From: a virus
Taxonomy: Duplodnaviria; Caudoviricetes
IMG/VR virus record: IMGVR_UViG_3300025018_000091
DNA length: 64,000 bases
Strand: one strand, 5' to 3'
Part shown: one piece after another, positions 22,583 to 41,378 of the stretch
Numbering within the stretch: the stretch's first letter is position 1
Layout of the letters: each line of letters begins with the position of its first letter
Translations under genes and position numbers: made by a program
Notes under the pieces: generated by a model
Told to the model about the DNA's origin: nothing
The model's input: only the letters and a program-made list of their open reading frames with translations
Database searches by the model: none

Positions 22583-23452
22583 TCACAATATAATTGGAGT
22601 TGCTGATTCTTCATATCCAACATTAAGTAACATTTCTACATTATTTGGATCAAAATCTAATGAACTATCTATATTAAACATTTTATGTGGTTGTAGCAAT
22701 CTAATCTTAATGTTTTTATATGTCTCTCCTAATTTTGCTAAATCATTTTTCAACCCACAAACCTTCAAATCTGCCCTAATTATTTCATCACTCATAATAT
22801 CAACCGCTCGTAAAGCATAATCTGGTAATGCATGTTGTTTTTCTGTATTCCAATTAGATGGTAAATCTGGATTGCTACACATTATAATATCTATTTCTGT
22901 AGCACCTAAACGAATAGCCTCTCCTAATGGAGTTACATTTCTTAAACCACCATCAGACCATAGTCTTCCATTAATTTCTACTGGTAACATAAATACCGGA
23001 AAACTTGAAGACGCCGCTACCCATTTATCAAAATCTGGATCATTTTCACTTGCCATATAATATTCACCAGTATCCCAAGCAACTGCTCCAACCCTTACCG
23101 ATCTCCCTGATTCACTAATCGCCTTATTATCTAACTCTAAATTAATCCATTTTAATAAAGGACTAGAATCATAAACAGACGGCTTCCATAATGATGCCAA
23201 CCTCCCCCAAAATATCCAATCTTTTCTTACATTATCATTATTAACCCTACTCCATAATTTTGATAAAACATTTATAGATTGTTCTGGATTGCCATATGGA
23301 ATCTGAGATAAACAAGCTACATTTATCGCTCCAACACTGACTCCACATAATATTTCATAATCAATTTTATCTTCACCCATCCATCGTTTTAATGCACCAA
23401 CTTGATATGCTCCCTTAACCGCACCGCCAGATAATACTAACGCTTTTTTCAC
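22583..23452 (-). CDS. Patatin-like phospholipase
   Basis: SGGAVKG oxyanion loop, GVSVG nucleophile elbow, DGG catalytic Asp motif. Confidence 0.92.
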   Translation of the reverse strand: MKKALVLSGGAVKGAYQVGALKRWMGEDKIDYEILCGVSVGAINVACLSQIPYGNPEQSINVLSKLWSRVNNDNVRKDWIFWGRLASLWKPSVYDSSPLLKWINLELDNKAISESGRSVRVGAVAWDTGEYYMASENDPDFDKWVAASSSFPVFMLPVEINGRLWSDGGLRNVTPLGEAIRLGATEIDIIMCSNPDLPSNWNTEKQHALPDYALRAVDIMSDEIIRADLKVCGLKNDLAKLGETYKNIKIRLLQPHKMFNIDSSLDFDPNNVEMLLNVGYEESATPIIL

Positions 23453-24231
23453 AGAAGACTCCGTTTCGAATATTGTTCCAAAATCTTGATTATTCTAAAT
23501 GATAACTTTAATCCCAATCTATAGTCATCAATACCATTAATAACATCCATAAATACCTCTAAAGCATTTGACAATGGTTTTGATGAGGACGGAATAGAAT
23601 CATCATAAACATATCTTGGATACGAATCTATTGACAATTTTCTTTGTTTAAATAACCCCCCATTACCAACAATACTAATAGTTTTTAATTTATCAAACAG
23701 TAATTCAATACTATAAATCTCTCCATTTAGATATGGATACTTATTAATGTAAACTGATTTAGGATCTTTGTTTAACAAATCCAATATCATAGATAAATCA
23801 TGAGGACCATAATCCCATAAACTAGAGTAATCTCTATAAGGACCAGTATTAAATCCTGCTGAAGAAATACTCTTAATAGAATTAATATCAATTACGTTTT
23901 TTATATATTGATATTGTTTAGAAAACAAATGAATATGATTTACCAATATTGGTGCTGAAAATTTCTCTAATTCCATAGCTTCAGATAAAGATAAGCTCAA
24001 TGGCTTTTCAATCATAGTTGGAATATCTTTTTCTAATGAATAACTGGCAATCTCTATATGAGATTGCGGAGGCGTACAAACAATCACACCATCAGGATTT
24101 TCATCTATTAATTGCTTCCAGTTATGTCGGTTTGCAACAGTTAAATTAACATTAAAATCTTCTAATGTTTTAATATAGTTTTTACCCCAAACTCCAGAAC
24201 CAATTAGCAATAATTTAGTGCTTGGCATCAT
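23449..24231 (-). CDS. Gfo/Idh/MocA-family oxidoreductase (possible sugar ketoreductase)
   Basis: LLIGSGVWG Rossmann motif, IEKP motif, DYGPHD motif. Confidence 0.85.
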   Translation of the reverse strand: MMPSTKLLLIGSGVWGKNYIKTLEDFNVNLTVANRHNWKQLIDENPDGVIVCTPPQSHIEIASYSLEKDIPTMIEKPLSLSLSEAMELEKFSAPILVNHIHLFSKQYQYIKNVIDINSIKSISSAGFNTGPYRDYSSLWDYGPHDLSMILDLLNKDPKSVYINKYPYLNGEIYSIELLFDKLKTISIVGNGGLFKQRKLSIDSYPRYVYDDSIPSSSKPLSNALEVFMDVINGIDDYRLGLKLSFRIIKILEQYSKRSLL

Positions 24232-25150
24232 CTAAATACCAATTAACACATTCTTCCAAACCTTTTTCAAAAGTATAGCTTGGTTTCCATCCTAATTCTA
24301 AAATCTTAGAGTTATCTATAGAATATCTAAAATCATGTCCGGGTCTATCCGCAACATGTTTTATTAAATCTCCACTATACCCTATAAGATAACAGATATT
24401 AGTAACCATCTCTACATTAGTACACTCATTGCCAGATCCAATATTGTAAATTTCATTTACTTTACCATTATTTATTAAAAACATAATAGCGTTACAATGA
24501 TCATTAACATACAACCATTCTCGTATTTGTTCTCCGCTACCATGTATAGGTATGTTTTGGCGAGCCAAAACTGATGTTATTATTTTGGGAACAAGGTTCC
24601 TTGGTGGCTGGCGCGGTCCAAAATTATTACAGCACCTGGTAATAATATAATTTAAACCATGGGTTTGATTGGCTGCCTTAACAATTAATTCACCAGCTGC
24701 CTTAGATGCTGAATATGGATTCCTTGGATTAATTGGATCTTTTTCCGTCCACGATTTATCATGTTGAGATTCTAATTGTCCATATACCTCATCTGTGCTA
24801 ACATACATTAGCTTTTCAACATGAAACTTCATACACATATCAACAACAATTTGGGTTCCAAGAACATTTGAATGTATAAATGGCAATGCTTTTTTAATGG
24901 AATTGTCAACAAACGATTCTGCAGCACCATGAATAACAATATCTGGTTTTTCTATCGCAAATACTCTATCCATAAAATGAACATCAGCAATATCACCAAT
25001 ATGTAGTTTATATTTCGGATCAACATTTTTTAAATTATGTTCTTCAATAAGCTTATCAACGCCTACAAATTCATAATCTACATTTTTAATTGTTCTAACA
25101 AAATTAGAAAATATAAAACCACAGGTACCAGTTACTAATACTTTCTTCAT
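24215..25150 (-). CDS. rfbB: dTDP-glucose 4,6-dehydratase
   Basis: VTGTCGFI, STDEVYG, PYSASK, NNFGP, DRPGHDFRY. Start MKKV at 25150 is ATGA-coupled to the previous gene (track gives 25192). Confidence 0.9.
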   Translation of the reverse strand: MKKVLVTGTCGFIFSNFVRTIKNVDYEFVGVDKLIEEHNLKNVDPKYKLHIGDIADVHFMDRVFAIEKPDIVIHGAAESFVDNSIKKALPFIHSNVLGTQIVVDMCMKFHVEKLMYVSTDEVYGQLESQHDKSWTEKDPINPRNPYSASKAAGELIVKAANQTHGLNYIITRCCNNFGPRQPPRNLVPKIITSVLARQNIPIHGSGEQIREWLYVNDHCNAIMFLINNGKVNEIYNIGSGNECTNVEMVTNICYLIGYSGDLIKHVADRPGHDFRYSIDNSKILELGWKPSYTFEKGLEECVNWYLDDAKH

Positions 25151-39214: not shown

Positions 39215-39220
39215 TTTACC

Positions 39221-40465
39221 ATGACATATTCACAAATTTCAAAAAAAGCTATTCATCCTAAATCTATCAACTTATGTAGCATACTAAAAAATGCAGGATA
39301 CCAAGCATATCTTGTTGGTGGTTGTGTAAGAGATTTATTTTTAGGAGTTACACCTAAAGATTGGGACATTACTACCGATGCCTTACCACAACAGGTTATT
39401 GCGTTATTTCCTAAAACATATCCAACTGGCATTCAACATGGTACTATAACTGTCGCCTTGGAAGATGAATACTTTGAAGTAACAACATTTAGAACAGAGG
39501 GCAAATATACGGATAACAGAAGACCAGATGAGGTAAAATTTGTGTCTTCAGTAGAGGAAGACCTATCTAGAAGAGATTTAACAATTAATTCTATGGCTTA
39601 TGATCCAATTACAGATACAATTATTGATCCATTTAATGGTTTACAAGATTTACAAAACGGAATAATAAAAGCCGTTGGAAACGCAGATGATAGATTTCAA
39701 GAAGATGGTCTAAGGATTTTACGAACAATTCGTTTTGCCTGTAGATTCAACTACGAAATTGAAGAAAAAACAAGACTATCAATGCAAAATAATAGGAGTA
39801 TATTAAACAATATCTCAAAAGAAAGAATAAAGGATGAATTTTGTAAGATAATGTCATATGACAATAGTTTTTATGGATTAAGATTATTATTAATGAATAC
39901 ATTATTACCATTAGTTTCACCTCTACATGAAAACTATGTATCTTATACACAATTTCATCAATTGGATGCGGATTTAGAAACTAAAATTGCAGATTTCTAC
40001 TATGAATATAATCCAATAGATGTTGAAAAGGAGTTAAGATGGCTTAAATTTTCCAATGATGAAATAAAAAGAATAATCTTTTTTCTAAAGCTAATACCAA
40101 TGTATAGGATGCTTTTAAAAATTAGTAACACACAAACCTATATTAGATTCATTGCACACATAAAAAATAACGCACCGCAAGAATATACATATACTTTAGA
40201 ACAATTTCTTAAACTAGTCAGATCCGAAAAAAATGAAATTAGTAAATACTTATTTGAGGAATGTGCGGATGTTACTATATTGTCTAGAAAAGAAATGAAG
40301 ATAAATGGTAATGATTTAATAAATATAGGAATACCAATTGGTCCGGAAATAAAAAAAGCTCTAGATAAATGTTATCAAGAAATCCTTAATCATCCAGAAA
40401 ATAATAACAAGGATATATTATTAAAATTTGTTTTATCAGATAGATTATTGTATTTAATGTTGTAG
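39221..40465 (+). CDS. cca: CCA tRNA nucleotidyltransferase (class II, no HD domain)
   Basis: GGCVRD...KDWD (motif A), [11 protein letters not shown]...Y.D.RRP loop, [15 protein letters not shown] templating motif. Confidence 0.92.
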
Positions 40466-41378
40466 TAGGCGATCTAGTACGAGCGCCATTTGCAACAGTA
40501 AATTGTAATGCAGTACTATTTCCAGGTGGATTTCTAATTTGAAGTAAAGTGTTAACTACTGTTGTAGTTATCATTACTGTCCCAATAATTTGAGCACTAC
40601 CACCATCTGTATTGGCGGTAGTATGTGGCGAAACTAAATAACCTGCGCCAGAATCTAACCATATCTCAAGTTGCCCCGGATTATTCATTGCTGCCGACCA
40701 ACTAATTAAATAAGTTCCAATTGTTGGCAAAATAAATGTATCTGTTGATGCACCGCTTCTAATAATTCCACCAAAATTAGGACCAGTTCCATCAAATGGC
40801 ACCGTTGTTCCTATTGCAATTGTTGCATCTCCAGGCATATTATCGTGATAAAAATATGCAAACTCTAAACCACAACAAGGTCCCGTAGCACCTGTATCTC
40901 CTGTAGGTCCTGTAGCTCCTGTAGGTCCTGTAGCTCCTGTAGCTCCTGTAGGTCCCGTAGCTCCTGTAGCTCCTGTATCTCCTGTATCTCCTGTATCTCC
41001 TGTAGCTCCTGTATCTCCTGTATCTCCTGTAGGTCCTATAGCTCCTGTAGGTCCTGTAGCACCTATATCTCCTGTAGGTCCCGTAGGTCCCGTATCTCCT
41101 GTAGGTCCCGTAGGTCCTGTAGCACCTGTATCTCCTGTAGGTCCTGTAGCACCTGTAGCACCTGTAGCACCCGTAGGTCCCGTAGGTCCTGCAGGTCCTA
41201 TATCTCCAGTTGGACCAGTTGGACCAGTTGGCTCTGGTGGTGGAATTGGAATAAAAATTGGAGCGCTTGAATATGATGATTTATCATATGGTCTTTCACA
41301 TAACGGTGTTCTACTTATAGGCACACAACAATCTGTTGATTTAGGCACACAGCAATTTAGGTATCTATAATAACTCAT
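40386..41378 (-). CDS. BclA-like collagen protein with a Cys-rich N-terminus
   Basis: [10 protein letters not shown]...DCC...; 38 Gly-X-Y triplets (34 with Thr at Y) ending GPCCG; BclA-like C-terminal domain ([13 protein letters not shown]). Likely start 41378 (track gives 41420). Confidence 0.75.
40878..41224 (-). repeat. Highly regular 9-nt tandem repeat encoding GPT/GAT/GDT
   Basis: Plus strand shows CCTGTAGCT/CCTGTATCT/CCTGTAGGT units. Confidence 0.9.

Follow-up and report, generated by a model that had tools for sequence, protein, structure and literature searches.

Collagen-like genes of a huge phage lie in one run with a gene island predicted to glycosylate their products

The window analysed here, a 64,000-nucleotide stretch of viral DNA (Duplodnaviria; Caudoviricetes; IMG/VR record IMGVR_UViG_3300025018_000091), comes from a 444-kb huge phage and carries genes for collagen-like proteins followed by an island of glycosyltransferase (GT), methyltransferase and nucleotide-sugar genes. 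We propose that this island glycosylates the adjacent collagen-like virion fibres, a sequence-based reading to which we assign a probability of roughly 0.62. It is supported because the predicted fold of the 815-residue transferase is that of a protein-directed enzyme, the gene order is conserved among related phages, the linkage is replicated in Bacillota and all the proteins are soluble. Glycosylation of the collagens in the manner of the spore protein BclA had been suggested by a sequence-only reading of the window, and that suggestion survived the tests that we ran on fold, on linkage in phages and Bacillota, and on solubility.

Results

Collagen-like genes and sugar genes form one co-directional run

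Fourteen co-directional genes on the minus strand, beginning two genes after the major head gene, extend from position 39100 to 22583 in the order p291, p200, colA, colB, GT2-TPR-GT4, methyltransferase, GT4, class-I plus FkbM methyltransferase, GT4, cupin, 3-C-methyltransferase, dTDP-glucose 4,6-dehydratase, GFO reductase and patatin. Junctions in the run range from a 46-nucleotide (nt) overlap to a 7-nt gap, with the 55 nt between colB and the GT gene as the sole exception, and the collagen genes and the island are translationally coupled. The gene list, order and coordinates given by the sequence-only reading agree with our Pfam and NCBIfam assignments, and its description of nearly all junctions as overlapping or abutting was accurate. 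A terminator scan found nothing above chance inside the minus-strand run.

Two collagen-like genes belong to the run and a third lies nearby, all on the minus strand. The product of colA (34353-37610; Collagen E = 4.5e-83), which we propose as the main glycan acceptor, has 1085 amino acids (aa), with collagen stalks at residues 19-292 and 670-960, a middle globular domain at 293-669 and a C-terminal domain at 961-1085; 48% of its 188 GXY triplets carry Thr at Y. Its N-terminus is conserved in the homologue from the related locus L004 and shows no hydrophobic stretch, the collagens being without a signal peptide. The 282-aa product of colB (33501-34349) has 21 triplets, also with 48% Thr at Y, a Collagen match of E = 5.6e-8 and a sub-threshold BclA_C match (30.6 bits; Pfam cut-off 38), and its head is probably BclA-C/C1q-like. 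The third gene, colC (40386-41420, with a likely ATG start at 41378), had been called a BclA-like collagen, and we obtained the same result: Collagen E = 6.3e-18, a sub-threshold BclA_C match (24.4 bits against the same cut-off), a Cys-rich N-terminus, and 39 GXY triplets with 87% Thr at Y; a BclA-C head is probable from the sequence. Because colC is missing at this position in the related loci L002 and L004, it looks like a lineage-specific, recent insertion of a BclA-like gene. A DNA pattern for GxT repeats gave 26 matches in the window and 0 in shuffles.

Some further observations concern these genes. The colC gene converges with a plus-strand gene for a CCA-adding enzyme (39221-40465), the two overlapping by 80 nt (40386-40465). 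In the head-proximal block, a 538-aa open reading frame (ORF; 47164-48780) contains a short Gly-X-Thr run at 47696-47739, a fourth, mini collagen-like element. The tripeptide Asp-Gly-Tyr is at least 10-fold above expectation in the sheath (2281-5085; 3 copies), two large proteins of the tail module, of 1963 aa (6938-12829; 7) and 522 aa (14682-16250; 5), and ColA (3 found, 0.3 expected), with 0 in the enzymes and head-block proteins checked; this excess is a weak hint that ColA may belong with the peripheral virion proteins.

We also examined the 15 proteins of the region for membrane segments. In 14 of them no hydrophobic 19-residue window resembled a membrane span, and the patatin was borderline (1.65). 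The absence of a flippase, polymerase or ABC exporter reported earlier was borne out: a Pfam scan and the hydrophobicity of the 15 proteins revealed no flippase, polymerase, exporter or initiating polyprenyl-phosphate transferase in the island. Since the proteins of the island have no membrane segment and the collagens no signal peptide, we can exclude that the island encodes a conventional route to a lipid-linked, exported polysaccharide.

The 815-aa transferase has the predicted architecture of a protein glycosyltransferase

The gene that follows colB (30998-33445, minus strand; Pfam PF00535 E = 1.1e-15) encodes an 815-aa enzyme with three modules, a GT-A (GT2) domain and a TPR-like helical domain at residues ~1-420 and a GT-B (GT4) domain at ~445-815. 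The DxD motif (D92/D94/D95) is invariant across 28 homologues. Among solved proteins, the best sequence matches of the GT2 domain are GmaR (7e-14), the flagellin O-linked N-acetylglucosamine (GlcNAc) transferase of Listeria, and SunS (1e-13) and ThuS (4e-10), which are glycocin S-glycosyltransferases. We used a 28-sequence alignment to model residues 1-440 with AlphaFold2, obtaining a mean predicted local distance difference test score (pLDDT) of 90 and a predicted template modelling score of 0.81. The model contains an alpha/beta domain (residues 5-180) followed by eleven helices (193-412; pLDDT above 85). The top ranks of a Foldseek search were occupied by full-length SunS and ThuS (E = 2e-15, ~404 columns across both domains), and the next tier by the wall-teichoic-acid transferases RmlT, TarP and TarS (~1e-7 to 1e-6). 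As modelled, the GT2-TPR module has the architecture of cytoplasmic protein/peptide glycosyltransferases. By analogy, we propose that it is the initiating O-glycosyltransferase of collagen Thr, and that the GT4 domain of the same enzyme would add the second sugar. In some homologues (P0030 and P0041) intein and LAGLIDADG domains (PF14890, PF14528 and PF13403) are present, indicating an intein inside the glycosyltransferase.

Related phages keep a collagen gene upstream of the transferase

At least 772 homologues of the 815-aa transferase exist, many of them on 430-480-kb contigs. In each of the seven neighbourhoods that we read in detail (46-75% GT identity; the IMG/VR locus L001 is one of them), the GT gene is preceded by a gene for a Thr-rich collagen and followed by the set of cupin, C-methyltransferase, dehydratase and GFO genes; some of these collagens have no recorded Pfam match and were recognised by direct inspection. 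A profile scan of IMG/VR supplied 76 further loci, and duplicates were removed before linkage was counted. At GT identities of at least 44%, a same-strand upstream collagen was seen in 24 of 28 distinct loci (median gap 111 bp; median Thr at Y 0.43), and three of the four exceptions have same-strand collagen ORFs of 2000-4000 aa lying 12-20 kb off. The single collagen ORF of a complete 428-kb relative with terminal repeats abuts the GT gene, and two other complete genomes have their largest collagen next to the GT. Where genes stand between collagen and GT in relatives, they too are fibre-like.

In more distant lineages (27-33% GT identity; L072-L074, L081, L062 and L077), a GT2-TPR gene was observed directly beside a large collagen gene; in L072-L074 the latter lies 11 bp downstream, and in L062 and L077 its product has 71-95% Thr at Y. 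Such pairs may be independent instances of the pairing.

The linkage recurs in spore-forming Bacillota

A test of linkage that is independent of phage ancestry came from the 80 cellular homologues closest to the GT2-TPR module, which match its residues 7-380 at 27-36% identity. Nearly all come from spore-forming Bacillota (among them Paenibacillus, Clostridium, Priestia, Desulfosporosinus, Romboutsia, Paeniclostridium, Lachnospiraceae and Oscillospiraceae). A collagen ORF was found in 54 of the 80 loci, within 500 bp in 39 and within 2 kb in 44 (same strand in 37 of these 44), with a median Thr at Y of 0.63. BclA_C scored above the Pfam cut-off in four of eight sampled bacterial collagen partners, and several GT-linked bacterial collagens have Cys-rich N-termini as in ColC. 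A known pair of this kind is SgtA and BclA3 of C. difficile, in which SgtA, whose gene neighbours bclA3, modifies Thr of the GPT repeats with beta-O-GlcNAc (PMC7157674). To judge from our survey, BclA-type collagens throughout the spore formers generally have an SgtA-like GT2-TPR enzyme as partner.

The remaining enzymes predict a branched deoxysugar and a methylated glycan

The other enzymes of the island are all encoded on the minus strand. A class-I S-adenosylmethionine (SAM) methyltransferase (30307-30996; Methyltransf_23 and Methyltransf_11), by sequence probably a sugar O-methyltransferase, is fused to the GT in many relatives (fused forms 1080-1400 aa). Two GT4 enzymes assigned to elongation follow, one at 29207-30310 (Glycos_transf_1 E = 4.9e-21; PDB 7fg9, 5e-26) and the second at 26781-27911 (Glyco_trans_1_4, 4.1e-7), the latter with homologues in 65 of 83 related loci. 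Between them lies a double methyltransferase with class-I and FkbM parts (27915-29213; Methyltransf_21, 3.6e-17; TIGR01444 fkbM_fam, 81.5 bits, cut-off 37.7), for which no solved relative was found. The small cupin (26360-26779) has sub-threshold matches to Cupin_2 and Polysacc_synt_C (CapF-type) and weakly resembles the Cap5F cupin and WxcM-like proteins; it is probably a keto-sugar epimerase or ketoisomerase, and relatives keep it beside the C-methyltransferase. The latter is a nucleoside diphosphate (NDP)-hexose 3-C-methyltransferase of the TylC3/TcaB9 type (25147-26358; PF08421, 5.4e-15; PF08484, 1.8e-40) that matches D-mycarose 3-C-methyltransferase (PDB 4rv9; 5.8e-68) and TcaB9 (3.3e-58). 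It is followed by a deoxythymidine diphosphate (dTDP)-glucose 4,6-dehydratase, RmlB (24215-25192; TIGR01181, 355.5 bits, cut-off 365.1; PDB 2hun, 3e-78), whose true start is probably ~15 codons in. A short GFO/IDH/MocA oxidoreductase (23449-24231; PF01408, 1.7e-10; PDB 3c1a, an uncharacterised oxidoreductase, 9.4e-23), probably a keto-sugar reductase, is the last sugar gene here and in relatives too. With neither a 2,3-dehydratase nor an aminotransferase in the island, the product would be a 6-deoxy-3-C-methyl-hexose with its 2-hydroxyl and without an amino group; the simplest predicted pathway product is dTDP-6-deoxy-3-C-methyl-hexose.

Insertions were seen between the C-methyltransferase and dehydratase genes of some relatives, namely a fusion of a response-regulator receiver and a dual-specificity phosphatase (JGI 3300050821 contig, 20448-21359; L006, 10303-12459) and, in L004, a GIY-YIG endonuclease.

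We infer each step of the following mechanism from family membership or gene context. RmlB would convert host-made dTDP-glucose to dTDP-4-keto-6-deoxyglucose, the TylC3/TcaB9-type enzyme would methylate C-3, and the cupin would epimerise or isomerise the product before the GFO reductase reduces the keto group to give dTDP-6-deoxy-3-C-methyl-hexose. The GT-A and TPR module would then place the first sugar on Thr at Y of the Gly-X-Thr repeats, as SgtA does on C. difficile BclA3; the GT4 domain and the two further GT4 enzymes may lengthen the chain, and three methyltransferase domains, one of the FkbM type, may O-methylate the glycan. The glycosylated collagens, as trimeric fibres, would assemble onto the particle in the cytoplasm, on head or tail.

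Other genes of the run and the surrounding structural block

The run opens with p291 (38225-39100, minus strand), a conserved protein with no Pfam or PHROG match whose homologues stand between the head gene and a collagen in each of the eight related loci that have one. Atlas searches with p291 and with the middle domain of ColA returned uncharacterised viral clusters only. Directly upstream of colA is p200 (37618-38220, minus strand), conserved in related loci at 44-79% identity, there too between head gene and collagen, which may be a fibre anchor or chaperone; its model (pLDDT 62) gave no significant fold match. Faint leads linked p200 to the DUF4183 fold of F-ENA spore appendages (atlas features 0.81; Foldseek 9n0b, E = 0.057) and to a T7 fibre, without Pfam support, and we do not claim a DUF4183 relationship. 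The tip of F-ENA appendages in Bacillus is a collagen-like BclA protein. At the other end of the run, a patatin-like phospholipase gene (22583-23452, minus strand; Patatin, 6.9e-30) shares 4 nt with the 3' end of the reductase gene, and 11 related loci keep it at the end of the island (for example, L004, 20061-20924; L006, 14291 onward). An 819-aa protein with a GDSL-lipase domain takes its place in L002, two genes after the island.

The phage is myovirus-like, and the structural genes in the window include those for a tail sheath, a giant protein with a prohead protease and the major head protein. Its 815-aa transferase lies on a 444,127-bp contig, and DNA of the window occurs in aquifer and groundwater metagenomes. 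A near-identity search of the INPHARED phages gave 0 matches to the window, and the best match of the sheath protein among deposited phages was 29% (an Eggerthella phage). The major head protein (41495-42508, minus strand; phrog_2522, E = 5.1e-78), whose gene marks the start of the structural block holding the island, keeps the same place in the relatives L002, L004, L030 and L032. Just 3' of its gene, the terminator scan placed a strong palindromic hairpin with a 13-bp stem (41436-41465). The structural block is interrupted by an HNH/endonuclease VII gene (42660-43811, plus strand), between the head gene and its upstream neighbour, and by a GIY-YIG-type homing endonuclease gene (51526-52308, minus strand). 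The motif ATATATTAA precedes three genes, at 20-35 nt from the start codon: the GT gene (33464-33472), the 1963-aa gene (12851-12859) and a 136-aa tail-module gene (13309-13317). We dropped it as a late promoter, since its count in the window (8, with 5.2 expected) shows no enrichment.

Discussion

Several results weigh against glycosylation of the collagens by the island. The best NCBIfam match of the 815-aa enzyme, the SunS family TIGR04195 (6.6e-15), scores 54.9 bits against an equivalog cut-off of 350, and by sequence the enzyme is a SunS relative, not an orthologue. Its likeness to SgtA is drawn from the published description of the latter. The sequence-only reading had pointed to Thr at Y in a large share of the collagen triplets; 48% is not an enrichment, Thr at Y being 48.3% as a norm in Gram-positive collagen-like proteins (PMC8968730), and we rejected it as evidence for glycosylation. 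Besides the sub-threshold BclA_C scores, single-sequence PDB searches with the heads of ColB and ColC gave no significant match. The roles given to the cupin and the GFO enzyme draw on weak matches or matches to uncharacterised proteins, and the prediction of the sugar does not extend to its configuration. Donor synthesis is also not 'self-contained' or 'complete', as had been claimed: tblastn found no match to a glucose-1-phosphate thymidylyltransferase (RmlA) within the window, and of three complete relatives, two have no nucleotidyltransferase (PF00483) anywhere and the third has one ~85 kb from the island. Because the window holds no nucleotidyltransferase, dTDP-glucose must be supplied from outside the island, by the host or by a gene elsewhere in the phage genome. 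The gene order shared by one phage clade is in part a matter of descent and cannot be counted as independent events. Linkage also fades with distance: an upstream collagen accompanies the GT in 8 of 18 loci at 32-44% identity but in 0 of 21 below 32%. The expected co-occurrence of island and collagens holds for most close phage loci, and that of GT and collagen for most of the bacterial loci, but two small phage records of 43-45 kb and ~63% GC, L031 (IMGVR_UViG_3300005577_000052) and L047, carry the GT and the full sugar set with no collagen match. The sugar module is portable and can serve another acceptor, because these two records carry the island without a collagen match. Collagen glycosylation, virion location and late expression are what we infer, the last only from the position of the region beside the major head gene.

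The two records just named also lend some weight to the idea that the targets of the island are virion proteins other than the collagens (capsid, tail tube or non-collagen fibres, for instance), as in mycobacteriophages, and that the collagens are mere neighbours in the structural block. In L031, which has an integrase and terminal repeats, the island is flanked by the replication genes and the terminase, just before the latter; distant GT2-TPR-GT4 homologues on ~40-kb contigs are mostly without a nearby collagen; and phage-encoded glycosylation of capsid and tail tube is established (Freeman et al. 2023, cited in PMC12619734). We nonetheless regard this explanation as unlikely. A collagen is the immediate upstream gene in most huge-phage loci and is the only collagen in one complete genome, the genes that separate collagen and GT in relatives are fibre-like as well, and the closest cellular homologues pair with a collagen in 54 of 80 loci. 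The same collagen adjacency in bacteria also speaks against a second proposal: that during infection the enzymes act on a glycoconjugate of the host surface, be it teichoic acid, capsule, S-layer or flagellin glycan, and remodel it, perhaps as a block to superinfection. For sugar clusters in jumbo phages this is the usual interpretation, and a comparative review reads clusters of epimerase/dehydratase, cupin and GT genes as capsule or O-antigen modification (PMC7824862); the second-tier fold matches RmlT, TarP and TarS and the host-type target of GmaR, flagellin, point the same way. However, the teichoic-acid transferases fall eight orders of magnitude below SunS and ThuS, membrane proteins, polyprenyl-phosphate transferases, flippases and exporters are all missing from the island, and it sits inside the structural block, translationally coupled to collagen genes. 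We therefore rank host-surface remodelling below collagen glycosylation and consider it improbable.

That the target is phage DNA, hypermodified with sugars, or else a small molecule seems to us very improbable indeed. DNA-glycosylating phage GTs are widespread (10.1101/2023.12.21.572611 and PMC13326640), and TylC3 and TcaB9 come from antibiotic pathways, C-methyl deoxysugars being typical of antibiotics. However, family scans of the run detected no base-hydroxymethylating or other DNA-modification enzyme and no polyketide or aglycone genes, the GT-A and TPR architecture matches peptide/protein transferases, and the location is structural rather than in a replication module.

If collagen glycosylation is taken as the function, a wider picture can be drawn, which we hold only tentatively and think more likely wrong than right in its full extent. 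A clade of 430-480-kb phages with hundreds of metagenomic members might wear an exosporium-like nap of collagen fibres of up to 4000 residues, O-glycosylated on Thr with methylated oligosaccharides that include the rare sugar 6-deoxy-3-C-methyl-hexose, by machinery captured from spore-forming Bacillota and expanded. If true, the nap could mimic host spore surfaces or shield the virion; no tailed phage would have had a collagen-based glycocalyx before it, and among viruses of bacteria it would be the parallel to mimivirus fibrils. The sequence-only reading had not recognised a sugar island tied to collagen fibres in a tailed phage as described, and we likewise found no description of such a system in the literature on collagen and glycosylation in phages, jumbo phages and huge phages. 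What is new is the combination, its viral setting and its spread over a huge-phage clade; the components are of known kinds.

Virion self-glycosylation in tailed phages is known mainly from mycobacteriophages, where it changes immune recognition. The present locus, kept throughout a large clade of uncultured huge phages, suggests a second, much larger and chemically richer self-glycosylation system, with Gly-X-Thr repeats as substrate, an initiating family common to spore-surface biology and a dedicated branched-sugar pathway. It would link phage particle surfaces to the exosporium glycoproteins of Bacillota, it predicts a rare sugar, and it offers a testable enzyme-substrate pair in the 282-aa ColB and the 440-aa GT2-TPR module.

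In mycobacteriophages the targets are reportedly the C-terminal tails of capsid and tail-tube subunits (Freeman et al. 2023), with neither a collagen substrate nor a branched-sugar nucleotide pathway. The likeness to the present locus is that GTs of a tailed phage modify its own virion proteins in the cytoplasm (cited in PMC12619734). Clusters for mimivirus fibrils likewise unite the gene of the decorated fibril protein with several GTs, a methyltransferase and enzymes of nucleotide-sugar synthesis, a 4,6-dehydratase among them, and their glycosylation is cytoplasmic and host-independent (PMC9614988). Mimiviruses and chloroviruses differ in being giant viruses of eukaryotes, with UDP-Rha, viosamine and bacillosamine as sugars, a GMC oxidoreductase as carrier and glycans of polysaccharide size. 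The sugar branch of the island resembles the TylC3 and TcaB9 pathways in the succession of RmlB and a Zn-ribbon, SAM-dependent NDP-hexose 3-C-methyltransferase, but its predicted product is not mycarose or tetronitrose and its reductase is of the GFO type rather than a short-chain dehydrogenase/reductase.

SunS/ThuS and GmaR remain the best sequence and structure matches of the phage transferase and share its GT-A and TPR-like helical substrate-binding architecture and a cytoplasmic setting. Identity to them is only 17-21%, the GT4 fusion is an addition in the phage, and the acceptor is presumably the Thr oxygen of collagen, in contrast to the Cys sulphur of glycocins or Ser/Thr of flagellin. 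The closest parallel in gene arrangement is SgtA-BclA3, where the enzyme combines GT-A with a second, helical domain and its gene neighbours a GPT/GXT collagen gene; the nearest cellular relatives of the phage module are Bacillota proteins of ~360-380 aa encoded beside collagen genes, some with true BclA_C. Unlike SgtA, the phage GT is fused to a GT4 domain, and in relatives often to a methyltransferase, and it is accompanied by its own predicted dTDP-3-C-methyl-deoxyhexose branch and several methyltransferases. Short O-glycans, with anthrose and cereose among their unusual sugars, decorate the collagen regions of BclA in B. anthracis and B. cereus (PMC12357932). The phage collagens differ from BclA in reaching 1000-4000 aa and in having extra globular domains, and their genes belong to a virion structural block and not to a spore exosporium; they are a viral analogue, not a spore protein.

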